The notes under the pieces: generated by a model
The model's database searches: none
What the model was told of the DNA's origin: nothing
The model's input: only the letters and a program-made list of their open reading frames with translations
Source: Spirochaetota bacterium
GTDB lineage: Bacteria; Spirochaetota; UBA4802; JAKQUI01
Assembly (NCBI GenBank): GCA_029562645.1
Contig: JAKQUI010000005.1
Location: 327,961-391,960, forward strand
Direction of reading: 5' to 3'
DNA length: 64,000 bases
Shown: in pieces, positions 3,922-62,177 of the stretch
Layout: each line of letters starts with the position of its first letter
How positions within the stretch are numbered: position 1 is the stretch's first letter
Program-made: the position numbers and the translations under genes

Positions 3922-3962
3922 GATGATATGAGTGTCGGCCGCAGTGCGGGTTGACGTGATGG

Positions 3963-18676: not shown

Positions 18677-21184
18677 ATGGCGCAGAAGAAAAAGGAGAAA
18701 AAACTCACCCCGTCCACCAATGAGTTCCAGGGCACGGACGTCGAATCGCTCCAGGTCTCGTTCGTGAATCATCTGGAGTACTCGTGCGCCAAGGACGAGT
18801 TTTCGGCCACCAAACACGACTGCTACACCAGCACCGCCCTCATGACGCGCGACCGGCTCATCGAGCGCTGGATCGAAACCCAGCAGTCCTATTACGCGGC
18901 GGACGCGAAGCGGGTCTACTACCTGTCGCTGGAGTTCCTCATGGGGCGCACGCTCGGCAACAGCCTCATCAACCTGGGGCTGTACGACAACGCCCACCGC
19001 GCGCTCGTGGATCTGGGCCACGATCTCGAGGAGTTGCGCGAAATCGAATGGGACGCCGGCCTGGGCAACGGGGGCCTCGGCCGCCTGGCCGCCTGTTTCA
19101 TGGATTCGATGGCCACGCTGGAGCTTCCCGCCTACGGGTACGGAATCCGCTACGAGTACGGGATCTTTTTCCAGAGCATCGTCGACGGCTACCAGGTGGA
19201 GACGCCCGACAACTGGCTCCGCTACGGAAACCCCTGGGAGTTTCCCCGCGCCGAGTACCTCTATCCGGTTCGGTTCTACGGGACCGTTGGTCATCACGCC
19301 GATCCGTCCGGCGCGCAGCGGTTCGAATGGACCGACGGGCAGATGGTGATGGCGATGGCCTACGACACGCCCATCCCCGGGTACAACAACAATACGGTGA
19401 ACAATATCCGGTTGTGGTCGGCGAAATCCACGCGGGAATTCAACCTGGAGTACTTCAACCACGGCGACTACGAGAAGGCCGTGTCGGACCAGGCCAACAG
19501 CGAAACGATATCGAAGGTGCTCTATCCCAAGGACGAGAGCTTCAAGGGAAAGGAGCTGCGGCTCAAGCAGGAGTATTTTTTCGTCTCGGCGACGCTCCAG
19601 GACATCATCCGCCGCTATAAGAAGATCCACGACTCCTTCGACGCCTTCCCCGACAAGGTGGCCATTCAGCTCAACGACACGCACCCGGCGATCGCCATCG
19701 CCGAGCTCATGCGCATCCTCATGGACGACGAGGGGATGGGCTGGGAGGCCGCCTGGGACATAACCGTGAAGACCTTCGCCTATACCAACCACACGGTGCT
19801 CCCGGAGGCGCTGGAGAAATGGCCCGTGGGGCTGGTCGAGTCGGTCCTGCCGCGGCACATCATGATCATCTATGAGATCAACCGCCGGTTCCTCGAGGAT
19901 ATCGCGGCGCGATACCCCGGCGACATGAACCGCCTCCATCGGATGTCCATCATCGAGGAGGGGGCCGTGAAGAACGTGCGGATGGCCAATCTCGCGATCG
20001 TGGGCAGCCATTCGGTGAACGGCGTCGCGGCGCTGCACACCGAGATCATCAAGAACAACATCTTTCGCGATTTCTTCGAATACTGGCCGCACAAGTTCAA
20101 CAACAAGACCAACGGCATCACGCAGCGTCGCTGGCTCAAGCTCTGCAATCCGGGGCTGGCCGGGCTCATCACCGAGGCGATCGGCGCCGGGTGGACGACC
20201 GACCTCTTCGAGCTCAAGAAGCTCGAACCGCTGGCCGGCGATGCGGCCTTCCAGGCGCAATGGGCGGCGGCCAAGCGGGTCAACAAGGAGCGCCTGGCCG
20301 AATACATCATGCGTAAAAACGGGGTGCGCGTAACGGTCGATTCCATCTTCGACTGCCACATCAAGCGGCTGCACGAATACAAGCGCCAGCTCCTCAAGGT
20401 GATGCACGTGGTCGCGCTGTACAACCGGATCAAGGCGAACCCCTCGGCGGCCATCACGCCGCGGACGGTGCTCTTCGCCGGCAAGTCGGCGCCGGGCTAC
20501 TACATGTCCAAGCTCATCATCAAGCTCATCAACTCCGTGGCGGACGTGGTGAACAATGATCCCGACGTGGCCGGGCGGCTCACGGTGCTATTTCTGGTCA
20601 ACTACTGCGTGTCCAACGCCGAGAAGATCATTCCCGCCGCGGACCTCTCGGAGCAGATCTCGACCGCGGGCTACGAGGCCTCGGGGACAGGCAACATGAA
20701 GTTCGCGCTCAACGGCGCGCTCACCGTGGGCACGCTCGACGGCGCCAATGTCGAGATCATGGAGGAGGTCGGGAGCGAGAACATCTACATCTTCGGCCTC
20801 ACGGCCGACCAGGTGGTGAGCACGCGGATCACCGGCTACAACCCGTGGGACTACTATCACAGGAACCCGGAGCTGAAGCGGGTGGTGGACATGATCGGCG
20901 GCGGCGCCTTCTCTCCGGGGCAGCCGGGGCTCTTCGCGCCCATCGTCGATTCCCTGCTCGCGCAGGGTGACCATTACCTGCTGATGGCCGATTTCGAGTC
21001 GTACCTGAATTGCCAGGACCGCGTGGCCCGCGACTATCTGGACCGGCCGGGCTGGGTGCGGAAATCGATCCTCAACGCCGCCCGGATCGGGAAGTTCTCG
21101 TCGGACCGGACGATCAAGGAATATGCCGACGAAATCTGGAAGGCGAAACCGGTACGCGTGAAAATCCGGCCTGATGCCACATAA
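18677..21184 (+). CDS. glgP: Glycogen/maltodextrin phosphorylase
   Basis: 835 aa. Phosphorylase hallmarks include EASGTGNMKFALNGALTVGTLDGANVEI (the PLP-Lys region). Confidence 0.9.
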   Translation: MAQKKKEKKLTPSTNEFQGTDVESLQVSFVNHLEYSCAKDEFSATKHDCYTSTALMTRDRLIERWIETQQSYYAADAKRVYYLSLEFLMGRTLGNSLINLGLYDNAHRALVDLGHDLEELREIEWDAGLGNGGLGRLAACFMDSMATLELPAYGYGIRYEYGIFFQSIVDGYQVETPDNWLRYGNPWEFPRAEYLYPVRFYGTVGHHADPSGAQRFEWTDGQMVMAMAYDTPIPGYNNNTVNNIRLWSAKSTREFNLEYFNHGDYEKAVSDQANSETISKVLYPKDESFKGKELRLKQEYFFVSATLQDIIRRYKKIHDSFDAFPDKVAIQLNDTHPAIAIAELMRILMDDEGMGWEAAWDITVKTFAYTNHTVLPEALEKWPVGLVESVLPRHIMIIYEINRRFLEDIAARYPGDMNRLHRMSIIEEGAVKNVRMANLAIVGSHSVNGVAALHTEIIKNNIFRDFFEYWPHKFNNKTNGITQRRWLKLCNPGLAGLITEAIGAGWTTDLFELKKLEPLAGDAAFQAQWAAAKRVNKERLAEYIMRKNGVRVTVDSIFDCHIKRLHEYKRQLLKVMHVVALYNRIKANPSAAITPRTVLFAGKSAPGYYMSKLIIKLINSVADVVNNDPDVAGRLTVLFLVNYCVSNAEKIIPAADLSEQISTAGYEASGTGNMKFALNGALTVGTLDGANVEIMEEVGSENIYIFGLTADQVVSTRITGYNPWDYYHRNPELKRVVDMIGGGAFSPGQPGLFAPIVDSLLAQGDHYLLMADFESYLNCQDRVARDYLDRPGWVRKSILNAARIGKFSSDRTIKEYADEIWKAKPVRVKIRPDAT

Positions 21185-21232
21185 CGTCCCGCGTGCGGCG
21201 ACGCGTCGTCCGCGGCGGTCGTTCCGGTCGCG

Positions 21233-22231
21233 TTATGCGAGCGCGGCGCGCTTCAGCTCATCCTCGCCGATGGGGCGCGCGATCGTCATGGTCCGCGGAT
21301 CATCCCCCCGCCGGAACACCTGAATGGCGTTGATCCCCTCCGGGCGTCCGTAGCGCAGCATGATCGAGCCGGCCAGGGCGAGCGTCGCCTCGTCGACGTC
21401 TCCCGTGAGGAGGGCGGTGGGTCCCTTGAAGTCCGGGACGAGGAGACAGTCGGCGCTGTCGCGAGCGCGCTCGAGCGCGCTCCCCTCCCGCTCGTTTCGC
21501 GCAACGATGAGCCGGGTGCGCTCGTTGAGCCGGAAATGGCGGCCCACGGAAAGCAGGTACACCGCGGCCAGGTCGTAGTCCGGCCGGTGCGCGAAAAGGT
21601 CGCGAAGGCGGCGCTCGTAATTGGCGTCGGTGAACAGGCAGCCGCCGGCGGGCGAGGCATAGTCCTCGATCTCGTAGCGCGCGGCGAGCTCCATCTGCCG
21701 GCGGCGCGATCGCCCGCTGATGTCGAGCAGGCGTTCGCGGTCCACGATTCCTTCGTCCTCTGCGACCGTCGGTTTCAGGAGCCTCGCGCTCAAGGGGCGC
21801 AATAAATACCCGTCGAGTCCCGACGCGTGTTCGATGTGGTTGAGCATGTGCCGCATCTGCGACATCGGCCGCTGGCCGACCACCTCGCCGGTCGCGACGA
21901 AGGCCGCGCCCGTGCGCTCCATCTCCTCCCGCGCGCGTTGCAGAAAAAATATCTTACAGTCGATGCACGGATTGATGTGCTTCCCGTACCCGTGCGCGGG
22001 GCGTTCGACCATGTCCATGTAGTCGCGCCCGCAGCGGATGTGCCGCAGCGAAAGTCCGATGCGCGCGGCCTGGCGCGCCGCGGCCGTGTCTGCGGGATCG
22101 GCATGCGGCGAAAAGAACGGGAGGACGAAGTGGAGTCCGATGAGTTCGATCCCCTGGTCCAGCAGAATCCGCGCGGCAAGCAGGCTGTCGAGTCCGCCGG
22201 AATAGAGGAGTATGCCGGTTCGCGGCGCCAT
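21233..22231 (-). CDS. PP-loop ATP pyrophosphatase, ThiI C-terminal-domain-like (no THUMP domain)
   Basis: LLYSGGLDSLLAA has a PP-loop SGGxDS. CIDCKIFFLQRAREEMERTGAAFVATGEVVGQRPMSQ parallels the ThiI CxxCK...TGEsLGQVASQ block. Confidence 0.5.
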   Translation of the reverse strand: MAPRTGILLYSGGLDSLLAARILLDQGIELIGLHFVLPFFSPHADPADTAAARQAARIGLSLRHIRCGRDYMDMVERPAHGYGKHINPCIDCKIFFLQRAREEMERTGAAFVATGEVVGQRPMSQMRHMLNHIEHASGLDGYLLRPLSARLLKPTVAEDEGIVDRERLLDISGRSRRRQMELAARYEIEDYASPAGGCLFTDANYERRLRDLFAHRPDYDLAAVYLLSVGRHFRLNERTRLIVARNEREGSALERARDSADCLLVPDFKGPTALLTGDVDEATLALAGSIMLRYGRPEGINAIQVFRRGDDPRTMTIARPIGEDELKRAALA

Positions 22232-23469
22232 CAGACCTCGTCGTGGTCGATGAGCTGGATGGTCACGCGGTCGCCGCGTTCGGCGCGGCGCATGTCGGCG
22301 GGGAGGATGATGAGGCAGTTGGCTCTGCTCATCGAGCGCAAAATCCCCGACCCCTGCGGGCCGGTGGTCCGCACGCGGAATTCCCCGTTTTCGATCGTGA
22401 ACACGCCGCGGATGAAGTGCACGCGTCCCGGCTTTTTGTCGATGGGCTCTTCGAGGATCGCGCGTACCAGCGGCTTGTCGCGTTTGCGCGCGCCCATGAG
22501 CGCCAGGAGCGCCGGCCGGACGAATTGGAGAAAGGCCACCTGTGTCGAGACGGGATTGCCGGGGAGGCCGAAGAAGAGCGTCGAATCCCGGCGACCGAAG
22601 ACGCAGGGCTTTCCGGGCTTCATGAGAATGGACTCGATGCTGATGTCGAAGCCGATCGACGCGAGCGCGTCGCGGACGAAATCATACCGGCCCATCGACA
22701 CCCCGCCGCTGGTGATGATGACGTCGTGCTCGGATGCGCGCGCCAGAAGGTCGCGGGTGGCTTCCAGCGTATCGGGGGCGATGCCCAGATAGGTTGGCTC
22801 CCCGCCGGTGCGGCGGACCTCCTCTCGGAGGATGTAGGCATTGCTATTGCGCACAACGCCATCGCGCGCCGGTGCGCCCACCTCGATCACCTCGTCGCCG
22901 GTGGAGATGATGGCGACGCGCGGGCGGCGCGCCACGCGGACGGTTGACGCATTGAGGGAGGCGAGCACGCCGATCTCAGAGGCGCGCAATCGCTCACCCG
23001 CCGTGAGGGTTACGGCGCCGCGCGGGATGTCCTCGCCGGCGCGGCGGATGTTCGACCCCATCGGGACGGCGTCGTATATCGAAACGGCGCCGTCAGTCTC
23101 GGCCGTGTCCTCGACCATGACCACCGTGTCCGCGCCGGGCGGAATGGGTGCGCCGGTCATGATCCGGACGGCCGATTCGGGATCGTCCAGACGGAGGAGA
23201 TCGCCGCCCGCACGAACCTCGCCGCGTACGGCGAGTCGCGCCGGGCGATCGCGCGTTGCGCCGGTGATATCGGCTGCGCGCACGGCGTATCCGTCCATGG
23301 CCGAGTTGTCGAATGCCGGGATGTCGGCGCCTGCGACGATGTCCTCGGCGAGGATACGGCCGCCGGCATCGACGAGGGAGACGGTCTCCGGCTCGAGGTG
23401 CGCCGTCGAACGGATGATAATGTCGATCGCGTCCTCGACCGATATCGAAGGCCTGCTGTTGGTGCTCAT
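22231..23469 (-). CDS. moeA: Molybdopterin molybdo/tungsto-transferase MoeA
   Basis: IPAFDNSAMDGYAVRAADI...GLPGNPVS matches the MoeA domain order. Confidence 0.85.
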   Translation of the reverse strand: MSTNSRPSISVEDAIDIIIRSTAHLEPETVSLVDAGGRILAEDIVAGADIPAFDNSAMDGYAVRAADITGATRDRPARLAVRGEVRAGGDLLRLDDPESAVRIMTGAPIPPGADTVVMVEDTAETDGAVSIYDAVPMGSNIRRAGEDIPRGAVTLTAGERLRASEIGVLASLNASTVRVARRPRVAIISTGDEVIEVGAPARDGVVRNSNAYILREEVRRTGGEPTYLGIAPDTLEATRDLLARASEHDVIITSGGVSMGRYDFVRDALASIGFDISIESILMKPGKPCVFGRRDSTLFFGLPGNPVSTQVAFLQFVRPALLALMGARKRDKPLVRAILEEPIDKKPGRVHFIRGVFTIENGEFRVRTTGPQGSGILRSMSRANCLIILPADMRRAERGDRVTIQLIDHDEV

Positions 23470-31648: not shown

Positions 31649-33043
31649 ATGAACCAGGCCCGATCCCGCAGCGGATTCAATCTTTCCCGTCGTCTTTATG
31701 GGCCGCGAAATCTCGGCTTTGTCCTCGCCGCGCTTCCCCTCGCGGCATTGCTCTATCAACATGACGCCGTGGCCGCGTGCTGGGGCGCGCTCGCGCTGAC
31801 CTGTTTTGCCTGGCCCCATGTCGCGTACTGGATCGCGCGGCGCGCGGACAACTCCAACCGTGCGGAGCTTCGAAACCTGCAGATCGACAGCGTGCTGGGG
31901 GGCGCCTGGTGCGCCGCGATCGGCTTTAACCCGCTGGTGGGGCCGGTCATGTTCTCGATGCTCATGATGGACGCGATCGCCGTGGGAGGCTCCCGGCTGC
32001 TCGCCAGGTGCCTGGCGGCGTACGCGGCGGCGGCGCTTGCCGGTGGACTGGTGACGGGCTTTCGGGTCGACGCCGGGATCAGCCTTATGACCGCACTTGC
32101 GTGCTTGCCGCTCATGATACTGTTTCCGTCCATCAACGGGACCATCGCCTATCTGCGCACGCGGCAGGTCGTGAGGCTGAAAAACGAGCTCGAGCGCCAG
32201 AAGGACGCGTTGTTCGACGTGCAGTTCAGGCTCGAGGAGGCGAACCGAGACCTGCGGGATACGAACGACACGCTTCGCCAGGCGCAACGGATCGCCGCGC
32301 ACGACATGCGGCTGGCCGCGAACGTGCAGATGAGCGTTCTTCCCGGCGCGGAGCCGAGCGTCGAGGGATGGGAGATCGCTTTTTACTTCAGACCCATGAG
32401 CGGCGTGTCGGGCGATTTCTACGATTTTTACGTCCGGGACGGGCGGCTCGAGGGGGTCGCGCTGTTCGATGTGTCCGGCCACGGCATATCGTCGGCGCTG
32501 ATCACGATGCTGGCCAAGTCGCTGCTCTACCGTCTGTTCGTGAGCGGTCTCGCGGGTCCGCTGGGTTCCGTCCTGACCGCGTTCAATCATGAGCTCTTCG
32601 GCGATATTGGGCAGTCGCAGTACTACTTGACCGGGGTGCTTCTGCGGATCGATGGCGACCGCGTGGAATATGTGAACGCCGCCCACCAGGAGATCGTCAG
32701 AAGGACCGCCCGCGGGGTCGAGCCGGTCCGTCCGGAAACGGACGAGCATCCGGGCGGCTTCTTCCTGGGTATATCCAGCGCGCCCCAGGAGTACGATGCG
32801 GTCGCGTTCGTCGTGGAGGCGGGGGAGCTGGTGCTGCTGTACACCGACTGCCTTTCCGAGGCGCGCAATGCCGAGGGGGAGCTCTACGGCCGAGAGCGTA
32901 TCTCGGCGTCGTTGTTGCGCGCGTCCGACACAAGCGCCCAGGCGGCGCTTTCCGGACTCTGCGAGGATTTCTATTCGTTTGTGAACGAGCGCGGCACCCT
33001 CAATGACGACCTGACGATCATCGTATTGCGAAAAACGGGGTGA
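31649..33043 (+). CDS. Membrane-anchored PP2C-type (SpoIIE/RsbU-like) serine phosphatase
   Basis: N-terminal polytopic region and a coiled-coil linker. PP2C motifs include FYDFYVRDGRLEGVALFDVSGHGISSALITM. Confidence 0.75.
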   Translation: MNQARSRSGFNLSRRLYGPRNLGFVLAALPLAALLYQHDAVAACWGALALTCFAWPHVAYWIARRADNSNRAELRNLQIDSVLGGAWCAAIGFNPLVGPVMFSMLMMDAIAVGGSRLLARCLAAYAAAALAGGLVTGFRVDAGISLMTALACLPLMILFPSINGTIAYLRTRQVVRLKNELERQKDALFDVQFRLEEANRDLRDTNDTLRQAQRIAAHDMRLAANVQMSVLPGAEPSVEGWEIAFYFRPMSGVSGDFYDFYVRDGRLEGVALFDVSGHGISSALITMLAKSLLYRLFVSGLAGPLGSVLTAFNHELFGDIGQSQYYLTGVLLRIDGDRVEYVNAAHQEIVRRTARGVEPVRPETDEHPGGFFLGISSAPQEYDAVAFVVEAGELVLLYTDCLSEARNAEGELYGRERISASLLRASDTSAQAALSGLCEDFYSFVNERGTLNDDLTIIVLRKTG

Positions 33044-37193: not shown

Positions 37194-37556
37194 ATGGCAC
37201 AGAAAACGAAATACAGCACCGACCCGGACACCCTCCTCGCGGAGTGCGAGGTCGACTATTACAGCGGGACCGGGAAGGGCGGGCAGAACCGCAACCGGCA
37301 CTACAATTGCGTGCGGCTTCGCCACCGCCCCACGGGGATCATCGCGGTGGGGACCGAGGAGCGCTCGCAGCGGAAAAACCGCGAGCTCGCGATCCGGCGG
37401 CTCGTGGAGCGGATCGAGGCGCTCAATTACGTGAAACCGAAGCGCGTCCCCACGAAGCCGTCGGCGGGCGCGAAGAAGGCGCGGATCGAATCGAAGACGC
37501 GTGTCGCGGTGAAAAAATCCGCGCGCAAGAAGGTTGCGAATGATGACGACGCCTAG
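37194..37556 (+). CDS. arfB: Alternative ribosome-rescue factor ArfB (peptidyl-tRNA hydrolase, GGQ)
   Basis: GTGKGGQNRNRHYNCVRLRH...RSQRKNRELAIRRL with a basic C-terminal tail. 120 aa. Confidence 0.75.
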   Translation: MAQKTKYSTDPDTLLAECEVDYYSGTGKGGQNRNRHYNCVRLRHRPTGIIAVGTEERSQRKNRELAIRRLVERIEALNYVKPKRVPTKPSAGAKKARIESKTRVAVKKSARKKVANDDDA

Positions 37557-40014: not shown

Positions 40015-41766
40015 ATGCACGGCTGGACCGGAACCATAGTGCGAATTGACCTGACGGAGAAGACGTTTTCCGTCGAACATCCGTCATCCGACATCTACGA
40101 GCGATTTATCGGCGGTCGTGGTATGGCGGGCCACTACCTCATGCGCGACGGCACGCGCGCCTGGGACGATCCGGCGATGCCGCTCCTCTTGTTCACCGGA
40201 CCGCTGGTGGACACGCCCACGCCCACCTCGGGGCGCATGTGCGTCATGAGCCGCTCGCCGCTCACGGGCGCCATCTGCGACACCTCCGTGGGCGGAAGGC
40301 TCGGCACGCAGCTCAAGCGCGCGGGGTTCGACGGCGTCGTGATCGCGGGAAAAAGCGATGCGCCCTGCGGCATCGAGATCCGCGACGGCGCGATCACCTT
40401 TACGGACGCCGCGCACCTTCGCGGGAAAACGGTAAGCGAGACGCGTGCGGCCATCGGCGATGCCGGTTCCTGCGCGGTCATTGGGTCGGCGGCGGAGAAC
40501 GGCGTCCTCTACGCGAGCATCATGGTGGACGGGCATTTCTGCTCTGGGCGCGGCGGCCTGGGCCTGGTGATGGCGTCGAAAAACCTGAAATACCTCGCGG
40601 TGAGCGGAACGGGAAAGACGCCGGTCGCCGACCGCGACGAGATCGCCGCGGCGCGCGAGGAGATCAACCGCCTCGCCGCGGCCTCGCCCATCCTGCTGGG
40701 CGAGCTCGGGATCGCGCACTACGGCACGGGCGCCCTCTACGATCTCATGGACAGCCGGCGCATGATGCCCACCGACAACTTCCGCGCGACCCATTTCGCC
40801 GCCGCCGCTTCCATGAACGCGCATGCCTACAAAACGCGCTATGCCACGAAGCGAACGGGCTGCACCGGCTGCGCCATTCTCTGCAAGAAGATCGGCGCCA
40901 ACAAGGAAATCATCCCCGAGTTCGAGACGATGTCGCACTTCAGCGCGCTTATCGGGAATGTCGATCCCGACGCCGTGATCGAGGCGAACCGCGTCTGCAA
41001 CGAGGCGGGAATGGACACCATCACCGCCGCGGTCACGATCGCCTGCCACCTCGAGATCACCGGCCGCTCGCTCTCGCCGGACGCGCTCATTGAATTGTTG
41101 AACGACATCGCGCATGCGCGGGGTGACGGTGCGGCGCTCGCGATGGGATCGCACCGCTATGCGGCCGCGCAGGGGCGTCCGGAGGTTTCCATCAGCGTGA
41201 AAAAAATGGAGCTTCCCGCCTACGATCCGCGCGGGGCCTACGGGATGGCGCTCGCCTACGCCGTGTCCACGCGCGGGGCCTGCCACCTGCGCGCGTACCC
41301 GATATCGCACGAACTCCTGCGCAAGCCCGTCGCGACCGACCGTTTCAGCTGGAGCGGCAAGGCGCGCATCATCAAGATCGCCGAGGACGCGAACGCGACG
41401 ATCGATTCGCTCACGGCCTGCAAGTTCCTCTTCTTCGCCGCGAGCCTCGAGGAATACGCGCGCGCCTATTGCGGCGCGACCGGCGCGCGCGCGACGGCGC
41501 AGGACCTGCTCGCGGCCGGCGAGCGCATCTATTATACGGAGCGCATTATGAATGCGGCGAACGGCTTTTCCGCGGACGACGACGATCTGCCGCCGCGCTT
41601 TTTTGCGGAGCCGGGGACCGGCGGGGGCGGCATCGCCATCGCCCCGCTGGGTCGCGGGGAGTTCCTCGCGGCGCGCGCGCGGTATTACCGGATCCGCGGG
41701 CTGGACGGGCGAGGGATGCCCACCGAAGAAAAATGCCGGGAGCTCGGGATCGAATGGAACGGCTGA
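40015..41766 (+). CDS. Aldehyde:ferredoxin oxidoreductase family (tungsto/molybdo-pterin) enzyme
   Basis: MHGWTGTIVRIDLTEKTFSVEHPSSDIYERFIGGRGMAGHYL...GFDGVVIAGKS is collinear with the AOR N-domain. 583 aa. Confidence 0.85.
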   Translation: MHGWTGTIVRIDLTEKTFSVEHPSSDIYERFIGGRGMAGHYLMRDGTRAWDDPAMPLLLFTGPLVDTPTPTSGRMCVMSRSPLTGAICDTSVGGRLGTQLKRAGFDGVVIAGKSDAPCGIEIRDGAITFTDAAHLRGKTVSETRAAIGDAGSCAVIGSAAENGVLYASIMVDGHFCSGRGGLGLVMASKNLKYLAVSGTGKTPVADRDEIAAAREEINRLAAASPILLGELGIAHYGTGALYDLMDSRRMMPTDNFRATHFAAAASMNAHAYKTRYATKRTGCTGCAILCKKIGANKEIIPEFETMSHFSALIGNVDPDAVIEANRVCNEAGMDTITAAVTIACHLEITGRSLSPDALIELLNDIAHARGDGAALAMGSHRYAAAQGRPEVSISVKKMELPAYDPRGAYGMALAYAVSTRGACHLRAYPISHELLRKPVATDRFSWSGKARIIKIAEDANATIDSLTACKFLFFAASLEEYARAYCGATGARATAQDLLAAGERIYYTERIMNAANGFSADDDDLPPRFFAEPGTGGGGIAIAPLGRGEFLAARARYYRIRGLDGRGMPTEEKCRELGIEWNG

Positions 41767-46795: not shown

Positions 46796-48283
46796 ATGAT
46801 CAACACCTCGGAACTCACCGACCGGCTCATCGACGGCGGGACGGACATCACCCTCGCATTCAAGCATCCCGACGATCGCACGATCATCGCGATCTCGGCG
46901 CTGGTGTCCAAGATCCTGTCGCGGCTCGATCGCGTCTTCTTCATCGACTCGCTCATCATCATCGTGAAGGAGATCGTGCTCAACGCCTACAAGGCCAATG
47001 CGAAGCGCTGGTACTTCAGCTCGCGCGGGCTCGATATCGCCGATCCGGAGCAGTACGCCGCCGGCATGGCGAGGTTCGATCACGAGGTGGTCCGGAACCT
47101 GGAGCGCATCCGCGACGATATGGAGCGCAGCGACTATACGATCACCCTGGTGATCAGCAAGCGCCCGGAGGGGATCATCCTGTCGATAACCAACAATGTC
47201 CCCATCCTTCCCGACGAGCTGGAGCGGGTGCGGGCGCGCCTCCGCAAGGCCGGCGACTTCGACAACCTGCGCGACGTGTACACGTCCCTCTACGACACCA
47301 CCGAGGGCGCCGGGATGGGGATCATCCTGTCGAGCCTGCTCTTGCGGCATTACGGCATCGACGCATCGAGCCTGACCGTCACCCCCGGAGAGAATTCGGT
47401 GACCACGTCCCTTACGGTGCCCTACGAGTTCCGCCCGCGCGAGGTGGTCTCTATCATCCGCGACCGGATCGTCGCGGCGATCGAGGGCCTGCCCACATTT
47501 CCCAAGAACATCGTGGAGCTGCAGGGCATGTGCGCCGACCCGTCCGTGGCCATCGAGGCCATCGCGGAACGCATCACGCACGACCCCTGCCTCTCCGCGG
47601 AGATCCTCAAGGTGGCGAACTCGGCGGGCTTCGTCACGCGCAAGCGCATCGAGACGGTCCACGAGGCGCTCATGATCATCGGCATCAAGAACCTGCAGAC
47701 GATCCTCGTGGTGACCGCGGCGCGGAAGATCCTGGCGCAGCGCTATCACAAGTTCGAGGAGCTGTGGGAGCATTGCACCAAGACCGCGTTTTACGCGCGC
47801 CGGATCGCGCACGCGCTCAAGCTGGGCGCCGCGGCCGACCACGCCTTCCTGGCCGGCCTCCTGCATGACATCGGCAAGATCGTCCTGCTCTCGACCGATC
47901 TCACGCTCGTCAACCAGATCGCCGATCTCGTCGCCAACCGCAAGGTGCGCGCCTCGACCATCATCGAGGAGGCGACCGTGGGGATCAGCCATGGCGCCAT
48001 CGGGGAGCTCATCGCCCGGAAGTGGAATTTCCCGGCGTTCCTCATCGAGGCGATCCGGGATCATCACACCCCGCTCAATGCGCCTCCGGAGTATTCCGTC
48101 TCGGTGTCGGTGGTGTACCTGGCGAACATGCTGGTGAACATCGAATCGAACGACTGCGCGTATTCATACGTCGAGACGCAGGTGCTCGAGCGCTTCGGGA
48201 TCGCCGGCGAGGACGCCTTTAACGCCCTGCACGACCAGATCCGGACCGAATACGCCGAGCATTCGGCGGCGATGAACGCGTAG
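46796..48283 (+). CDS. HDOD-domain signalling protein with N-terminal HATPase-like domain
   Basis: N-terminal region has a G2-box-like TTEGAGMGIILS. The C-terminal HDOD has LPTFPKNIVELQGMCADP...GLLHDIGK. Confidence 0.7.
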   Translation: MINTSELTDRLIDGGTDITLAFKHPDDRTIIAISALVSKILSRLDRVFFIDSLIIIVKEIVLNAYKANAKRWYFSSRGLDIADPEQYAAGMARFDHEVVRNLERIRDDMERSDYTITLVISKRPEGIILSITNNVPILPDELERVRARLRKAGDFDNLRDVYTSLYDTTEGAGMGIILSSLLLRHYGIDASSLTVTPGENSVTTSLTVPYEFRPREVVSIIRDRIVAAIEGLPTFPKNIVELQGMCADPSVAIEAIAERITHDPCLSAEILKVANSAGFVTRKRIETVHEALMIIGIKNLQTILVVTAARKILAQRYHKFEELWEHCTKTAFYARRIAHALKLGAAADHAFLAGLLHDIGKIVLLSTDLTLVNQIADLVANRKVRASTIIEEATVGISHGAIGELIARKWNFPAFLIEAIRDHHTPLNAPPEYSVSVSVVYLANMLVNIESNDCAYSYVETQVLERFGIAGEDAFNALHDQIRTEYAEHSAAMNA

Positions 48284-52796: not shown

Positions 52797-54656
52797 CTAC
52801 AGGATCTCGCAGCCGATGACAACCGAATCGTCCTCGGCCGGCGCGGCGCCGCGAAACGACGCAATCGCCTTCTCGACGCGGTCGAGTGCGTCTGAAAGCT
52901 CCAGGTGGGCGAATTCGTCAATTAAGGACAGCAGCCGCACGTACCCGAAGAGCTCGCCATCGGCAGTTCGGGTTTCGACGATCCCGTCGGTATAGAAAAA
53001 CACCCGGTCTCCAGTGCCCAATTCCAAGCGCATGTCGCAGAACGTTGCATGTGCAAAATGACCAATCACGGGCCCGTGGCAGACCAGGAATTCCGCCGGC
53101 CTTCCGCTGCGTTGAAGCACCGGTTCCGGATGCCCTCCCTTGGAAAAGGCCAGCGATACCGGGCCCTGTCCCGTCCAGGAAAAAAACGCATAGGCCGCGG
53201 TAAGATAATGTCCGGGCATGGCTCCGAGGAGATTCAGATTGAGCGTCCCGATGAAGCCCGCGGGATCGCGGTGGCTGGTGCGGAAAATCCGTTCCGACTC
53301 GGATTTCAGCAGGGCAAGGAACAGCGCGGCCGATACGCCGTGCCCCGAAACATCGCCAATGAGCAGGCCCAGCCCCTCGCTTGTCGCAGCGAAGGAGAAA
53401 TAATCGCCCCCCACCGCGTCCATGCTGTTCGAGCGGAAATCCGTGCGGACCCGTTCCGTTATCGGCGCCGATTGCGGCAGGAGGGCCCGCTGGATGCGCT
53501 GGGCGTGCAGGAGCTGTTCCTCGATTTGTTCATTGCGCGCGCTGAGCACCTCCCTGCTCTGTCGAAGCTCCGCTGCGGTCGCTATGCCCTGTTCAATCTC
53601 CCTGCGGAGGAGTATCTTTTCCGTCAGGTCGTGGGCGATGATCAGCACCGCGATGATGTCTCCCTCCCGGTCGTGCATGGCGCTGCCGCTGATGCGATGG
53701 GGGACCTCCCCGCCGCTGCGGGTGATCAGCGCGTCCTCGAGGGAAAATTCCTCACGATCCCCGGCGCGTACTGCGTCGAACAGAGTGCGAAATGCATCGC
53801 GATTCCGCAGGAATTCCGTAAAGGGCCGCCCGGCGAGCTCGGTCTCGCTCGATCCCAGCAGGGTCCCCGCCCAGGCGTTTACCTTCAACACCGTTCCGCC
53901 GGGATCGAGAAGGACAACAACGTCCCTGATGCGCTTGAGGATTTCACCTGAGGCGAAGGCCAGGGAAAGCGACAGCAGCTGGTAACGCACGATGGTGAAG
54001 AGCGTGCCCGCGGCGAGGAGAACGATGATCAGCGGCGAGAGTGATGGCATGGCGTACACGCCGATAAGCGGAAGCAGGATGTCGGATATAAAACAAAGTA
54101 AAAAGGTGAAGGATATGCAGATCGTGAGAATGGCCGACTGCTTTCGTTCGCGCCGCAACGGGCTTCGCAATCCCCAGCAGACAAGGATGATGAGGGCCAC
54201 GGAAATGCAGAGCACCTGATAGAGGATGAAGAACCAGTACCACGGTGAATCCGTGAGCGGAATCTCGATCCAGCCCAGCGGATGGCGATATAGCGCAAAG
54301 CCCTGAAAATGTCCCGTCCATTGCATGGCTAAAAGCAGAATCCCGGGCGCGTACAGCGCCGTTACGAACCAGGGATTTCTCGTTAAACCGGATCCGGCAA
54401 TGTATAATAACACATGGGCGGCCATGCCGCTGTAGAGACACCATGCGAGTGCGCTAATAGTGTACGCGGCGTATGCCATTTCGGGCGCATGGAACGCGTG
54501 CATCACCGCAAACGACGCGGCCCAAAGGCCGAAGAGGGCGCACAGGAGCGAGAAGACCCGATTAAGGCCGTCCCGAAGCCCCCTGCTGAGGATGAACCCG
54601 GCAAGGTAGAGATAAAAGAGCGATGCGGTCACATGAAGAAGGATGAAAACATTCAT
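52797..54656 (-). CDS. Polytopic membrane sensor with PAS domain and PP2C (SpoIIE-type) phosphatase
   Basis: About 7 N-terminal TM helices, a PAS region, and a C-terminal PP2C (GDYFSFAATSEGLGLLIGDVSGHGVSAALF). Confidence 0.75.
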   Translation of the reverse strand: MNVFILLHVTASLFYLYLAGFILSRGLRDGLNRVFSLLCALFGLWAASFAVMHAFHAPEMAYAAYTISALAWCLYSGMAAHVLLYIAGSGLTRNPWFVTALYAPGILLLAMQWTGHFQGFALYRHPLGWIEIPLTDSPWYWFFILYQVLCISVALIILVCWGLRSPLRRERKQSAILTICISFTFLLCFISDILLPLIGVYAMPSLSPLIIVLLAAGTLFTIVRYQLLSLSLAFASGEILKRIRDVVVLLDPGGTVLKVNAWAGTLLGSSETELAGRPFTEFLRNRDAFRTLFDAVRAGDREEFSLEDALITRSGGEVPHRISGSAMHDREGDIIAVLIIAHDLTEKILLRREIEQGIATAAELRQSREVLSARNEQIEEQLLHAQRIQRALLPQSAPITERVRTDFRSNSMDAVGGDYFSFAATSEGLGLLIGDVSGHGVSAALFLALLKSESERIFRTSHRDPAGFIGTLNLNLLGAMPGHYLTAAYAFFSWTGQGPVSLAFSKGGHPEPVLQRSGRPAEFLVCHGPVIGHFAHATFCDMRLELGTGDRVFFYTDGIVETRTADGELFGYVRLLSLIDEFAHLELSDALDRVEKAIASFRGAAPAEDDSVVIGCEIL

Positions 54657-57451: not shown

Positions 57452-58225
57452 CTACTTCTTGGTCAGCTTTTCGGCCCGGCTCAGGTTGTCGAAGATGGCC
57501 GTGTTTTCGGGGGCCAGCTTCTGCGCCTTCCGGTAGGCCTCGACGGCCTCGGCGTTCTTGCCCAGCAGCTCGTAGCTGAGCGCGAGGTTGTTGAGGATGA
57601 TGCCGGAGGACGGCATGAGCTCGTGCGCCGTCGCGAACGCGGTGTTCGCCTCCGAGTACCGCTTGAGGCGCATCAGGGCCATCCCCAGGGCGTGGTACGA
57701 TGCGTACAGGGCCGGGTCCATCGAGATGGATTTTTCGAGCAGCTCCTTGGCGCGCCAGGCGTTGCGGTTCGCCAGCGCCATGCGGCCCCAGATGTAGTAA
57801 AACATCGGATCGTCCTTGATCTTCCGGCCCTTCCGGAGGAAGGAATCGGCCTCTTTCAGTTTCCGGTGCTCGACGAGCATGAGCGCCGCGTCGATGTACG
57901 GGTCCGGGGTGGCGCGGTCGATCTCGGCGCATTTCCTGAAGTGCGAGAGCGCGCCCTTGAGGTTCCCCTTCTTCCAGTGGGCATGGGCCGCGAGAAAGCG
58001 CAGGCGATAGTTGGGTGAGCCGGGCTCGCGGTCGCGCTTCGCGTCCAAGGTGTCGGTGATGGTTTTGAGCGCGTCATCGTACTTGTTCTGTTGGAACAGT
58101 TTTAACGCATCGTCGTAGCTGTCGGCGCTCGCCGGCAGGGCCACGCACAATATCGCACATAGGAGCAGGATCGTTTTCATCTCGGTTTTCCTGGGGGAAT
58201 GATGGTCCGGCGCCGATGCGTACAT
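57452..58225 (-). CDS. Tetratricopeptide-repeat protein, exported
   Basis: Signal peptide. Repeated A/Y/L 34-aa TPR units. Confidence 0.7.
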   Translation of the reverse strand: MYASAPDHHSPRKTEMKTILLLCAILCVALPASADSYDDALKLFQQNKYDDALKTITDTLDAKRDREPGSPNYRLRFLAAHAHWKKGNLKGALSHFRKCAEIDRATPDPYIDAALMLVEHRKLKEADSFLRKGRKIKDDPMFYYIWGRMALANRNAWRAKELLEKSISMDPALYASYHALGMALMRLKRYSEANTAFATAHELMPSSGIILNNLALSYELLGKNAEAVEAYRKAQKLAPENTAIFDNLSRAEKLTKK

Positions 58226-58243
58226 CGGCGCCGGACTCCTCCG

Positions 58244-61117
58244 TTACTTCTTGCCTTTTTTCTTCGCGGTTTTTTTCGGCGCGGCCTTCTTCTTCGGGGC
58301 CGGTTTCTTTTTCGCCGGAGCCGCCTTCTTCTTCGCCGCGGGCTTTTTCGGCGCGGCCTTCTTCTTCGGCGCCGCTTTCTTCACCGCCGGTTTCGCCTTC
58401 GGCAGGGCGGCGCCGCGCACCGCCGCCTGGGCCGCCGCGAGACGCGCGATGGGCACGCGGAACGGCGAGCAGCTCACATACGACAGGCCGATCATGTGGC
58501 AGAACTCGACCGAGCTCGGCTCGCCGCCGTGCTCGCCGCAGATGCCCAGCTTGATGTCCTTACGGACGCTGCGGCCCTTTTCGACGGCCATGCGCATCAG
58601 CACGCCCACGCCGTCGCGGTCGAGCTGCTGGAACGGGTCAACCGGCAGGATCTTCTTCTCGACGTAATCCGGCACAAAGCCGCCGATGTCGTCGCGCGAG
58701 AAACCGAAGGTCATCTGCGTCAGGTCGTTGGTGCCGAAGGAGAAGAACTCGGCCGTCTTCGCGATCCGGTCGGCGGTGATGGCCGCGCGGGGTATCTCGA
58801 TCATGGTGCCGAACATGTGTTCGATCTTCGAGACGCCCATCTTCTTGCATACCGCGGCGTGGACCGCGTCCAGGAGCTTCTTCTGGTCATCCAGCTCGTT
58901 CACATGGCCTACCACGGGGATCATGATCTCAGGGACGACCTTTTTGCCCTCTTTGTTGAGCTCGGCCGCGGATTCGAGAATGGCGCGGTACTGCATCTCG
59001 GAGATCTCGGGGAAGGTGACGCCCAGGCGCACGCCGCGGTGCCCCATCATGGGGTTCGATTCGTGCAGATCCTCGGCCCGCTTGGTGAGCCGGTCCATGC
59101 CGATGCCCAGCGCCGAGGCGAGCTTCTCGCGCTCGTCCTGGCGGGTGGGCACGAACTCATGCAGCGGCGGGTCCAGCAGCCGGATGGTCACCGGGAGCGG
59201 GCTCATCACCGCCAGCGTGCTCTTGATGTCGCGCTTCACGAAGGGAAAGAGCTCGTCGAGCGCGGCGCGGCGCTTCTCCTCGGTGTCGGAGAGGATCATC
59301 TTGCGCAGGATAAACAGCGGCTGCTCGGAGTTCTTTCCGTAGAACATGTGCTCGGTGCGGAAGAGGCCGATCCCCTCCGCGCCGAACTCGCGCGCCTTGG
59401 CGGCGTCCTCGGGGGTGTCGGCGTTGGTGCGCACCTTGAGGGTCCGCATCTCGTCGGCGATCTTCATGAACTTTTGGAAGCGCGGGTTTTCGGTGGCGTC
59501 CATCATCGCCAGCGCCCCGGCGTAAACGAAGCCGCGCGTGCCGTTCAGGGTGAGGGTTTCGCCCTCGCGGAAGGTGCGCCCGTCGACCGTCATGGTCTTC
59601 GCGTGCACGTCCACGTGGATGGCGCCCGCGCCCACGATGCAGCACTTGCCCCAGCCGCGCGCCACCAGCGCCGCGTGCGAGGTCATGCCGCCGCGCGCGG
59701 TGAGGATGCCCACGGCCGCGCGCATCCCCTCGACGTCCTCGGGGTTGGTCTCTTCGCGCACCAGGAGCACCTTCTTGCCGGCTTTCGCGGCCTCGACGGC
59801 GTCGGTCGCGGTGAAGACGATCTCGCCGCAGGCGCCGCCGGGACCGGCGGGCAGGCCGCGCGCGATCACCGTCGCGCTCTTCTCGGCGTTCGGATCGACG
59901 ATGGGGTGCAAGAGCTCGTCGAGCTGCGCGGGTGCCACGCGCATCACGGCCTCCTTCTTGCTGATGAGCCCCTCGGCCAGCATGTCCATGGCCATGTTGA
60001 GCGCGGCGGTGCCGGTGCGCTTGCCCACGCGGCACTGCAGCATCCACAGGCGCCCGTCCTGGATGGTGAATTCGATGTCCTGCATGTCCGTGTAATGCTT
60101 CTCGAGCTTGTTTCGAATGGCGTCCAGCTGCTTGTAGGCGGGCGCCATCCCCCGCTCGAGGGACGGAAGGTGCTTGTTCTGGTCGTTCTTGGTCGATTCG
60201 TTGATGGGGTTGGGCGTGCGGATGCCCGCGACCACGTCCTCGCCCTGCGCATTGGGGAGCCACTCGCCGTAGAACTTGTTGTCGCCGGTGGCCGGGTTGC
60301 GCGTGAAGGCCACGCCGGTGGCCGAGGTGTCTCCCATGTTGCCGAATACCATCGATTGCACGTTCACCGCGGTGCCCCACTCGTCCGGGATGCTCTCGAT
60401 GCGGCGGTAGGCGATGGCGCGCTTGCCGTTCCACGACGAGAACACGGCGCCGATGCCGCCCCAGAGCTGCTCGTAGGCGTCGTCCGGGAAGTCCTTTCCG
60501 AGGATCTCGCGCACCTTCGCCTTGAAGCGTTCGACGAGGCTCTTGAGATCGTCCGCGGAGATGTCGGCGTCGGTCTTGTAGCCGCGGGACTTTTTCAGGT
60601 CGCCCAGCATGCGGTCGAGCTGCTGGCGGATGCCCATGCCCTCGGCGGGTTCGATGCCGGCGGCCTTTTCCATCACCACGTCCGAATACATCATGATGAG
60701 GCGGCGATAGGCGTTGTATACGAAACGCGGATTGTTGGTTTTCTTGATGAGGCCGGGGATGGTCTTGGAGCACAGGCCCACGTTGAGGACCGTTTCCATC
60801 ATGCCGGGCATCGAGGCGCGCGCGCCGGAGCGGACGGATATGAGGAGCGGGTTTTCACTGTCGCCGAAGCGGGCGCCCATGATCTGCTCGACCTTTTTCA
60901 TGGCCGCCATGACCTCTTCGCGCAGACCCGCGGGAAATTTCCGGCCGATCTCATAGTATTCGTTGCAGACCTCCGTGGTGATGGTGAAGCCGGCCGGGAC
61001 GGGGATGCCGATCTTGCTCATCTCGGCGAGGTTCGCGCCCTTGCCGCCCAGGAGGTTCTTCATCGTCGAGTCCCCGTCGGCCTTCGCGCCGCCAAAAAAA
61101 TACACTCGTTTTGCCAT
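58244..61117 (-). CDS. ppdK: Pyruvate, phosphate dikinase with K/A/P-rich C-terminal tail
   Basis: MAKRVYFFGGAKADGDSTMKNLLGGKGANLAEM at the N-terminus, and the catalytic His region GGMTSHAALVARGWG. It ends SPFRVPIARLAAAQAAV, followed by about 59 aa of PKAKPAVKKAAPKKKAAPKK...KKGKK. Confidence 0.9.
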   Translation of the reverse strand: MAKRVYFFGGAKADGDSTMKNLLGGKGANLAEMSKIGIPVPAGFTITTEVCNEYYEIGRKFPAGLREEVMAAMKKVEQIMGARFGDSENPLLISVRSGARASMPGMMETVLNVGLCSKTIPGLIKKTNNPRFVYNAYRRLIMMYSDVVMEKAAGIEPAEGMGIRQQLDRMLGDLKKSRGYKTDADISADDLKSLVERFKAKVREILGKDFPDDAYEQLWGGIGAVFSSWNGKRAIAYRRIESIPDEWGTAVNVQSMVFGNMGDTSATGVAFTRNPATGDNKFYGEWLPNAQGEDVVAGIRTPNPINESTKNDQNKHLPSLERGMAPAYKQLDAIRNKLEKHYTDMQDIEFTIQDGRLWMLQCRVGKRTGTAALNMAMDMLAEGLISKKEAVMRVAPAQLDELLHPIVDPNAEKSATVIARGLPAGPGGACGEIVFTATDAVEAAKAGKKVLLVREETNPEDVEGMRAAVGILTARGGMTSHAALVARGWGKCCIVGAGAIHVDVHAKTMTVDGRTFREGETLTLNGTRGFVYAGALAMMDATENPRFQKFMKIADEMRTLKVRTNADTPEDAAKAREFGAEGIGLFRTEHMFYGKNSEQPLFILRKMILSDTEEKRRAALDELFPFVKRDIKSTLAVMSPLPVTIRLLDPPLHEFVPTRQDEREKLASALGIGMDRLTKRAEDLHESNPMMGHRGVRLGVTFPEISEMQYRAILESAAELNKEGKKVVPEIMIPVVGHVNELDDQKKLLDAVHAAVCKKMGVSKIEHMFGTMIEIPRAAITADRIAKTAEFFSFGTNDLTQMTFGFSRDDIGGFVPDYVEKKILPVDPFQQLDRDGVGVLMRMAVEKGRSVRKDIKLGICGEHGGEPSSVEFCHMIGLSYVSCSPFRVPIARLAAAQAAVRGAALPKAKPAVKKAAPKKKAAPKKPAAKKKAAPAKKKPAPKKKAAPKKTAKKKGKK
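58247..58425 (-). repeat. Imperfect tandem DNA repeats (GCCTTCTTCTTCGGCGC-like) encoding the KAAP tail of PPDK
   Basis: Visible degenerate periodic repeats on the plus strand at 58250-58420. Confidence 0.5.
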
Positions 61118-61214
61118 GGTAGTGACTCCTTGTGTCAGTGGGTTGTATGATTCCGGAACACGTAACAGTAAAACGGGTGCCGGAGAATCATGAAATTGTA
61201 AACATTAATTTTTT

Positions 61215-62177
61215 TTACAAATACCGCTTTATCTCGCGCAAAAAGCACACGTCGAAATCCTCGCAGGAGGCGCACCGCGCACTCTCGCCGAGCCGCTCCG
61301 GGCAGGGTCCGCCGCGGTCCTCGGTCATGATCGACAGGAGTTTGATGCGCTGATATTCGTCGTCGCTGAGCGCCTCGGGCCCCTCCGCGCGAACGCGGGT
61401 GAGCATGGCCAGCTTCTCCTCCCTGCCGCGCGCATCGCTATAGTCCGGTTTGGCCCGCATGAGCGAATCGTATTCGTTGAGCTTTTTCTGGGCGCGGACC
61501 TGCGCGATCTTTCCCTTGAACGACAGGGTGCGCCGTTGGAAAATGAGAAAGAACACGATGCCGAAGAAGAGCCCGCCCAGGTGGCCGATGTGCGATATAT
61601 TGCTCGCCCCGCCGAAGAGTTCGAAATACAGTTCGAGCCCCCCATAGAGCAGCACCAGGTATTTCGCCTTGATGGGGATGAAGAAGAACAGCAGCAGCTC
61701 CATGTTCGGATAGAGCACCCCGAAGGCCAGCAGGAGGCCGAACACCGCGCCCGAGGCGCCGATCGTCGGGAGGTAGAACCCCATGCCGCCCGAGATGAGG
61801 TTGATGAGGAAGATGGCGACGCCGGCGCCCGTGCCGCAGAAGACGTAGTAGAGCAGAAAGCGCCGGCTCCCCCACGCCTGCTCGATGGGTATGCCGAAGA
61901 TGAGGATCGCGTACATGTTGAAGAAAATATGGAAGAAGCTGTGCGTGCTGTGGAGGAACATGTACGAGAAGAACTGCCAGAGGTAGCCCTTGCCGATCAC
62001 CAGCGCGGGGGTGAGGCCCAGAAAGTGGGTCATCGGAGAGACGCCCGGACCCATCCCCCCGCCGGGGTCGGGCCGCCCCGAGGACTCGCTGAATATCTGC
62101 AGGATGAAGATGACGACGTTGGCTGCGATAATCTTGAACACCACGCCGCGCGCATCCGATCGGGAAAAGCCGTTCAT
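61215..62177 (-). CDS. Rhomboid-family intramembrane serine protease with C-terminal Cys-rich cytoplasmic extension
   Basis: GASGAVFGLLLAFG (GxSG catalytic Ser) and a downstream His helix. C-terminal CPERLGESARCASCEDFDVC. Confidence 0.75.
   Translation of the reverse strand: MNGFSRSDARGVVFKIIAANVVIFILQIFSESSGRPDPGGGMGPGVSPMTHFLGLTPALVIGKGYLWQFFSYMFLHSTHSFFHIFFNMYAILIFGIPIEQAWGSRRFLLYYVFCGTGAGVAIFLINLISGGMGFYLPTIGASGAVFGLLLAFGVLYPNMELLLFFFIPIKAKYLVLLYGGLELYFELFGGASNISHIGHLGGLFFGIVFFLIFQRRTLSFKGKIAQVRAQKKLNEYDSLMRAKPDYSDARGREEKLAMLTRVRAEGPEALSDDEYQRIKLLSIMTEDRGGPCPERLGESARCASCEDFDVCFLREIKRYL

Follow-up and report, generated by a model that had tools for sequence, protein, structure and literature searches.

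Introduction

Disordered C-terminal tails rich in lysine, alanine and proline (K/A/P), of the histone H1-like or PAKKA type, are known from bacterial proteins that work on DNA or organise granules. A tail of this composition was analysed on a pyruvate phosphate dikinase (PPDK) encoded on the minus strand of a 64,000-nucleotide stretch of DNA from a Spirochaetota bacterium (NCBI GenBank assembly GCA_029562645.1, contig JAKQUI010000005.1, positions 327,961 to 391,960). This whole stretch is referred to as the window, and coordinates are those of the window unless another locus is named. The tail recurs on related PPDKs, and may tether the enzyme to nucleic acid.

DNA binding is known for the KPAA and PAKKA tails of AlgP, PhaF, Hlp and Ku (PMC9239181, PMC3553676). 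The actinobacterial PAKKA tails of Hlp (HupB), Ku and topoisomerase I resemble the PPDK tail in being C-terminal, disordered, K/A/P-rich and fast-evolving, and in being carried by a conserved protein in some orthologues and not in others (PMC3553676, PMC7398561). Their hosts, however, are DNA-binding or DNA-processing proteins, in which the tail modulates an existing DNA activity, whereas PPDK is an enzyme of carbon metabolism, and the two kinds of tail share composition without sequence homology. In Pseudomonas, the H1-like K/P/A repeats of AlgP and PhaF tether polyphosphate (polyP) or polyhydroxyalkanoate granules to the nucleoid (PMC9239181), and conceptually these proteins would be the closest analogue of a tethered PPDK. 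Their tails are 150–195 aa of near-perfect KPAA on small structural or adaptor proteins, in contrast to 54 aa of degenerate AAPKK-type sequence on a 100-kDa enzyme.

In the myxobacterial protein CarD, the AT-hook domain is functionally replaceable, in experiments, by human HMGA or by the C-terminal region of histone H1 (PMC8156234). PPDK orthologues likewise carry either K/A/P or RGRP-containing tails, but CarD is a transcription factor with demonstrated DNA binding, whereas for PPDK the equivalence is drawn from motif content alone. Chlamydial Hc1 and Hc2, the Burkholderia H1-like proteins and the C-terminal domain of eukaryotic H1 have the K/A/P composition, disorder and tandem pentamers seen in the PPDK tail; unlike the fused PPDK tail, Hc1, Hc2 and the Burkholderia proteins are stand-alone nucleoid proteins. 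Valyl-tRNA synthetase (ValRS), also a housekeeping enzyme, has a curated model (PRK14900) that includes a K/A/P-rich C-terminal extension, and its basic tail, unlike that of PPDK, has an obvious rationale in the RNA substrate. Among PPDKs, the Clostridium symbiosum enzyme (PDB 1KBL/1DIK) has the same architecture and motifs as the window protein, residues 2–901 of which align with it end to end, but canonical PPDKs end 2–3 residues past the last helix, unlike the window PPDK. Literature searches turned up no description of a basic PPDK tail. Tails of this type are familiar; the novelty lies in the PPDK host, the specificity for PPDK and the apparent convergence across lineages.

A polycationic tail on a canonical PPDK

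The PPDK gene occupies 58,244–61,117 on the minus strand (957 codons plus TAA), as identified from the list of open reading frames (ORFs) and from TIGR01828, Pfam and PDB matches. Against the TIGR01828 equivalog, the protein scored 1284 bits (cutoff 843.45), with residues 3–900 aligned to positions 2–865 of the 865-position model, and PF01326 (PPDK_N), PF00391 (PEP-utilizers) and PF02896 (PEP-utilizers_C) were all matched far above the gathering score. These matches describe a three-domain architecture, consisting of a nucleotide-binding PPDK_N domain, a swivelling phospho-histidine PEP-utilizers domain and a TIM-barrel PEP-utilizers_C domain, with which the AlphaFold2 model is compatible. A PDB search returned the PPDK structures of C. 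symbiosum, Flaveria, maize and trypanosome at E = 0. The catalytic motifs GGMTSHAA (phospho-histidine H481) and GICGEHGG (C860-G861-E862-H863) are present, and are invariant in an alignment (A1). By homology, the gene is unambiguously a canonical PPDK (TIGR01828 / EC 2.7.9.1), with a predicted activity in the reversible conversion of pyruvate, ATP and inorganic phosphate to phosphoenolpyruvate, AMP and pyrophosphate.

Homology to PPDK families and structures stops at residue 899–903 (899 for Pfam PEP-utilizers_C, 900 for TIGR01828), and the alignment to PDB 9pzl/1kbl ends at query residue 901, equivalent to chain residue 872 of 874. The catalytic core was accordingly set at residues 1–903 (58,409–61,117, minus strand) from the alignment to the C. 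symbiosum chains and from the last AlphaFold2 helix (residues 885–903). Past the canonical end, the frame runs via AALPKAKPAVKKAAPKKKAAPKKPAAKKKAAPAKKKPAPKKKAAPKKTAKKKGKK to the TAA stop codon, read directly at 58,244–58,246 (minus strand), and the C-terminus of the protein reads ...SPFRVPIARLAAAQAAVRGAALPKAKPAVKKAAPKKKAAPKKPAAKKKAAPAKKKPAPKKKAAPKKTAKKKGKK*. The polycationic tail comprises residues 904–957 (58,247–58,408, minus strand), as delimited by composition, G+C content at third codon positions (GC3) and the predicted local distance difference test (pLDDT), and within it the K/A/P run proper, residues 906–957 (58,247–58,402, minus strand), is built of AAPKK(K)/PAAKKK units. The last 56 residues (902–957) include 25 K, 17 A and 9 P (45%, 30% and 16%) and no D or E, giving a net charge of +25. 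In an AlphaFold2 model computed from a 43-sequence alignment, the last helix ends at residue 903, and residues 905–957 have a pLDDT of 31–35 and no secondary structure, which indicates that the tail is a predicted disordered appendage on the last TIM-barrel helix.

The original prediction, that a true PPDK carries an in-frame, K/A/P-rich extension of H1-like character, is borne out by profiles, structures and composition, and the 52-residue tail peptide that it quoted is exactly residues 906–957. Its estimate of about 59 residues described a real extension, but the length past the canonical C-terminus is about 54 aa; its interval of 58,247–58,425, given without a strand for what is a minus-strand gene, holds the tail but also takes in the end of the conserved terminal helix. 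Degenerate tandem repeats in the DNA, likewise predicted, were recovered by Tandem Repeats Finder at 58,255–58,394 with periods of 15, 18, 21 and 33 (2.5–6 copies per repeat, 69–81% matches). GC3 is 0.82 in the tail and 0.92 in the core, and the two share codon preferences, with codons ending in G or C.

The composition of the tail bears on one possible role, electrostatic attachment of PPDK to the anionic inner membrane face. Some lysine-rich C-terminal regions bind membrane as well as DNA, TubY being an example (PMC7762940), but the last 56 residues of the window protein contain a single L and a single V, lack aromatic and bulky hydrophobic side chains and show no amphipathic pattern, and this role is very improbable.

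Compared with C. symbiosum PPDK, this subfamily carries two short insertions in its nucleotide-binding domain, at residues 153–165 (AAGIEPAEGMGIR...) and 307–318 (ESTKNDQNKHLPS) of the window protein (both within about 60,164–60,661, minus strand). AlphaFold2 confidence at these insertions was moderate, with block means of about 67–71, above the segments that fall under 50. A 983-codon stop-free ORF antisense to PPDK (58,199–61,150, plus strand) was rejected as spurious, being usual for high-G+C DNA, with GC3 selecting the minus-strand frame; several further long ORFs overlapping PPDK are likewise spurious and are not genes.

Tails on related PPDKs

The 121 closest PPDKs, including the window protein, were compared (cores 73–86% identical). 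The closest database proteins have 86% core identity; one is from 'Spirochaetes bacterium' GCA_004297825.1, with the same gene order. In syntenic close relatives, fused basic tails extend 115, 37 and 40 aa past the canonical end before a stop. Fused basic tails of 20–165 aa are present in 75 of the 121 proteins, reaching up to 162 aa past the canonical end, and the length distribution is bimodal, with 44 proteins under 10 aa and two at 10–19 aa. The 75 tails have net charges of +11 to +53 and a median K+R content of 41%, and acidic residues are essentially absent.

A quick neighbour-joining tree of the cores with midpoint rooting, in which gains and losses are not firmly told apart, placed the tailed proteins in three all-tailed clades of 34, 29 and 10 members, plus two singletons, with Fitch parsimony giving five changes and core divergence within a tailed clade reaching 26%. 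The tailed groups, assigned from few named members, are Spirochaetota/TA06/Edwardsbacteria, an Acidobacteriota-type clade (named members Thermoanaerobaculaceae and Acidobacteriia/Terriglobia metagenome-assembled genomes (MAGs)) and a Bacteroidota-like clade. The junction (AAIRG..., AQLTHPRG... or AALAD...), the flavour of the repeats and the terminal motif (KKKGKK as opposed to RSRR or KARR) differ between the clades, and these differences, on a quick tree, suggest that the tails of the three may have arisen separately. Among proteins clustered at 90% identity or more, tails vary by insertions, deletions and substitutions, and are still in frame and basic. Tails are present in genomes of 51% to 72% G+C, and all tailed PPDKs come from uncultured MAGs or metagenomes (GCA_004297825.1, GCA_053578275.1 and GCA_001777935.1 among them), where they are annotated plainly as PPDK.

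By contrast, the 80 species-representative loci retrieved by a genome scan (cores 65–76% identical), which acted as a negative control, had no tail, PPDK ending within about 14 residues of the canonical point, and a basic extension was present in about 4 of 150 family-wide representatives. The tail is thus unusual, as had been predicted, across these scanned loci and representatives, but it is the majority state in its own subfamily. From these comparisons, the tail is read as a selected feature of a PPDK subfamily of uncultured, anaerobe-type lineages (Spirochaetota, TA06, Edwardsbacteria, Thermoanaerobaculia and part of the Bacteroidota). Both the sequence and the length of the tail are seen to change fast, apparently through repeat expansion and contraction, while charge and the lack of acidic residues are conserved.

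Shorter basic ends were also observed. Mini-tails of 3–9 residues of lysines (...PRKKK, ...PRKTKKK, ...RRKAKKTKKAD) are found on P0025, P0029, P0043, P0071, P0078 and P0063, which are sister lineages of the long-tailed acidobacterial clade, and may be nascent or residual tails. At a Victivallales locus (L031), a stop-free stretch reading STKKKGKDMAKTASNKRKSSSAAKK lies upstream of an untailed PPDK (about 3,914–4,000, plus strand), and may be an N-terminal basic extension or an untranslated leader.

Whether the tail could be an assembly or frameshift read-through artefact, or a neutral, functionless low-complexity expansion, was considered against these data. At 63% G+C, 56 codons in a row without a stop are nothing out of the ordinary (P about 0.22), and the DNA encoding the tail is a slippage-prone tandem repeat. 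Against this stand the lysine count, 25 among the last 56 residues (P about 3e-15 given the lysine frequency of the core, about 1e-29 for random codons), the bimodal tail length, and the retention of tails over 26% core divergence and in 72% G+C genomes, where it opposes mutational bias. The artefact reading was rejected because independent assemblies of relatives all show in-frame fused tails and because codon usage in the tail matches the core, which agrees with the original claim that no frameshift or read-through is involved. The prediction had also named, as a sign against a genuine fusion, a separate small basic gene in relatives; in 773 kb of PPDK loci, no small K-rich ORF beside an untailed PPDK was found. 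Artefact or junk is therefore barely credible, and is effectively refuted.

A lineage-wide habit of the proteome was also considered and found unsupported. In the window, where all six frames were searched, and in 111 kb flanking six tailed PPDKs, at loci that span the three tailed clades (Spirochaetota, Edwardsbacteria, Acidobacteriota-type and Bacteroidota), no coding segment of K-rich low complexity other than the PPDK tail was found. Within the DNA scanned, the K-rich tail belongs to PPDK and is not a general trait of the proteome.

Tail types and possible binding partners

Tails of one orthologue subclade contain AT-hooks, in place of K/A/P repeats or alongside them. These are RRGRPKGSKNRPK in P0072 (RGRPKGSKN), SRRGRPKGKK in P0024, and PGRPKGSKNK twice in P0082 and twice in P0119, each of the latter two with a third PGRPK core. 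Since the Pfam AT_hook model gave no match, even on the RGRPKGSKN tails, a regular expression was used to identify them. AT-hook II of HMGA1, a reader of the DNA minor groove, has RGRPKGSK as its core (PMC11354804), and the AT-hook-bearing orthologous tails would be the strongest internal clue to nucleic-acid binding. The original prediction had suggested localisation to the nucleoid, to polyphosphate or to the membrane; these AT-hooks and the published experiments on the CarD, AlgP/PhaF and Ku tails indirectly favour a nucleic-acid partner. By analogy with the H1-like and PAKKA systems, the reading preferred here, with a probability of roughly 0.5, is that the tail acts as a non-specific nucleic-acid tether, for DNA in the first place, which places PPDK on the nucleoid.

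Membership of known basic-tail families was tested by profile searches. The window tail was unmatched by Hc2 and the bacterial H1-like models (PF07382, NF038052, NF038053) at E ≤ 10 for Pfam and E ≤ 1 for NCBIfam, and Pfam scans of seven tails and NCBIfam scans of four gave nothing significant. Tails of relatives scored 11–14 bits against H1-like models with cutoffs of 40–135, for example E = 0.059 for P0006 against NF038052 (13.5 bits, cutoff 135) and E = 0.055 for P0108 against PF07382. The window tail has no KPAA array of the AlgP/PhaF repeat domain, and no match to that family. A tail-only search of a 5.8-billion-protein database returned one non-significant match (E = 2.3), and low-complexity bias correction removed everything. 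The window tail does fall in the compositional class of histone H1-like/PAKKA sequences, being disordered, built of short K/A/P repeats and free of acidic residues. Because the homology tests fail, 'H1-like' is used as a description of possible action, not of family membership.

The only significant profile match of the tail was to the PRK14900 ValRS model (NF011492; E = 1.8e-5, local, positions 968–1,036 of 1,044), which bears, weakly, on binding to RNA or ribosomes. Such binding would place PPDK near translation, where synthetases release adenosine monophosphate (AMP) and pyrophosphate (PPi), or in RNA-dependent condensates. The match is compositional, however, with the tail region alone aligning at 22.8 bits against a cutoff of 1783, and the protein is not a member of PRK14900. 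Tails of the Thermoanaerobaculia type (P0021, P0048, P0087, P0105, P0106 and relatives), which differ from the spirochaete tail type, consist of G/R-rich units (GSGVRGQGSAKTK, GTGHRAPGTG), at least six of them near-identical in P0105, followed by K/A/T/P repeats; such units (for example GSGVRGQGS) resemble RG/RGG RNA-binding motifs, again as a weak pointer, and glyQ and glyS lie directly upstream of PPDK at one locus (L085). Against RNA are the K/A/P tails characterised to date, which are nucleoid-associated, and the AT-hook variants, which point to DNA, so that an RNA or ribosome partner is considered unlikely.

In one subclade (P0091, P0103 and P0108), the tails are in two parts and extend about 153–158 aa past the canonical end. 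The first part, about 90 aa long, is rich in K, E and V, looks helical (MKVLQETVKDAVKRAGDAAQKKVAPVVEKALK...) and gives weak matches of apolipoprotein, DUF948 and DivIVA-like type; KKPxxKKP repeats come after it. These tails could represent a different mode of attachment, through amphipathic helices or a coiled coil.

The tail might instead bind polyP or target polyP granules, so that an enzyme that handles PPi and inorganic phosphate (Pi) sits by a store of phosphate polymer. AlgP is enriched on and localised to polyP granules, and its K/A/P domain is needed for their spacing (PMC9239181). PPDK chemistry uses both PPi and Pi, and in a Bacteroidota MAG (GCA_049587695.1, locus L087) a gene for an H+-translocating pyrophosphatase (20,650–22,799, minus strand) lies about 8 kb from the tailed PPDK, which hints that tailed lineages run a PPi-based energy economy. 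No ppk or ppx gene was seen beside any tailed PPDK in the loci examined, however, AlgP is thought to bind DNA as well, and the AT-hooks of some orthologous tails are readers of the minor groove that would make no sense for polyP. This partner is rather improbable.

A role in cis was also weighed, in which the tail acts as a solubility aid or 'entropic bristle', as a stabiliser of the oligomer, or as an electrostatic antenna or regulator for phosphoenolpyruvate, PPi and AMP. It would suit the predicted disorder, the conservation of composition and not of sequence, and the convergence of independent lineages on charge alone. A tail of charge +25 will, on the other hand, bind cellular nucleic acid anyway, AT-hook motifs are unexpected in a pure bristle, and the 901-residue core is roughly neutral (120 K+R versus 117 D+E), with no obvious acidic partner surface; a purely cis function is accordingly held to be doubtful.

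A proposed nucleic-acid tether

For the preferred reading, a nucleic-acid tether, the following mechanism is proposed. Binding of polyanionic nucleic acid by the tail would be non-specific, with nucleoid DNA as the main target, contacted in the minor groove and along the backbone, and the PPDK oligomer would thereby be held on the nucleoid. Since PPDKs form dimers or tetramers, binding would be multivalent, and with two or more tails per particle DNA segments could be bridged. A speculative pay-off would be that an enzyme that consumes PPi and AMP and yields ATP is placed where PPi is made; alternatively, and equally as speculation, PPDK might be sequestered or partitioned.

Several points weigh against such a tether. 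AT-hooks occur on only 4 of the 75 tails (5 with a lone GRP included), and the window tail itself has no AT-hook and no GRP core. Basic tails bind any polyanion, and sequence alone cannot separate DNA from RNA or polyP as the partner; tailed PPDKs are known here from sequence and predicted structure. To our knowledge, the hosts of PAKKA tails all act on DNA or granules, and we know of no reason for PPDK to do so. The midpoint-rooted tree leaves the count of gains versus losses uncertain, and fast tail turnover would also be expected of weakly constrained low-complexity sequence.

A more elaborate proposal supposes that PPDK specifically would have gained such tails convergently, at least three times. 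PPDK would then be a nucleic-acid-tethered PPi sink that doubles as an abundant, multivalent H1-like nucleoid protein, positioned on the nucleoid or on the transcription–translation machinery of anaerobes with a PPi economy. Removal of PPi and AMP at polymerases and synthetases would pull polymerisation forward and save the bond energy as ATP. This combination of roles is thought improbable.

Gene neighbourhood and other genes of the window

Downstream of PPDK, a perfect 14-bp G+C-rich hairpin (58,205–58,236, minus strand), found by RNA folding, starts 7 nt past the stop; it is terminator-like and has no U tract. Its folding energy is −35.1 kcal/mol (z = −5.0), and none of 200 shuffled sequences folded as well. 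In a consensus terminator scan, no canonical terminator with a U tract appeared downstream of the PPDK gene, and the single match of the scan, on the plus strand inside the tail repeats, was discarded as spurious. An inverted repeat after the PPDK stop was also seen by eye, unfolded, at the PPDK locus L081.

The next gene encodes a TPR lipoprotein-like protein (57,452–58,180, minus strand; Pfam TPR, with the start taken at MKTILLL...), and a TPR gene also follows PPDK in L081, L082/L083 and L084. Upstream lies a rhomboid protease gene (61,215–62,177, minus strand; Pfam Rhomboid). The gene order CxxCxxCC, rhomboid, PPDK, TPR is conserved in L082/L083 and L084, with an M23 peptidase also shared in L084.

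Elsewhere, the window is rich in signalling genes. Two SpoIIE/PP2C-type phosphatases with membrane sensor modules (7TM-HisKA_7TM plus PAS, and MASE2) are encoded at 52,797–54,656 (minus strand) and 31,649–33,043 (plus strand), a GGDEF protein at 271–1,539 and an HDOD/HD protein at 46,796–48,283. Genes for a glycogen/maltodextrin phosphorylase (18,677–21,184, plus strand), an aldehyde:ferredoxin oxidoreductase (40,015–41,766, plus strand) and CstA (10,140–11,885, minus strand) fit an anaerobic, fermentative, glycogen-cycling life; the phosphorylase has a short basic N-terminus (MAQKKKEKK...). A small RF-1-domain protein (37,194–37,556, plus strand), ArfB-like by size and basic tail (...VAVKKSARKKVANDDDA), carries a basic stretch that is the ordinary ribosome-binding tail of its family, unrelated to the PPDK tail.

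Biological significance

An H1/PAKKA-type tail on a central glycolytic/gluconeogenic enzyme differs from the known hosts of such tails. It is kept over several uncultured phyla, seems to have arisen more than once, and is confined to PPDK when neighbouring genes are compared. These features suggest that selection in these bacteria acts on where in the cell a metabolic enzyme sits, here on a polyanion. For annotation, the 30–170 additional residues seen on many PPDKs from metagenomes are genuine and do not reflect errors of gene calling, and natural pairs of tailed and untailed PPDKs exist, the untailed cores being about 78% identical to the window enzyme. Should the tail indeed hold PPDK at the nucleoid, this would provide a simple, testable example of spatially organised bacterial energy metabolism, in which PPi recycling would be linked to nucleic-acid synthesis.

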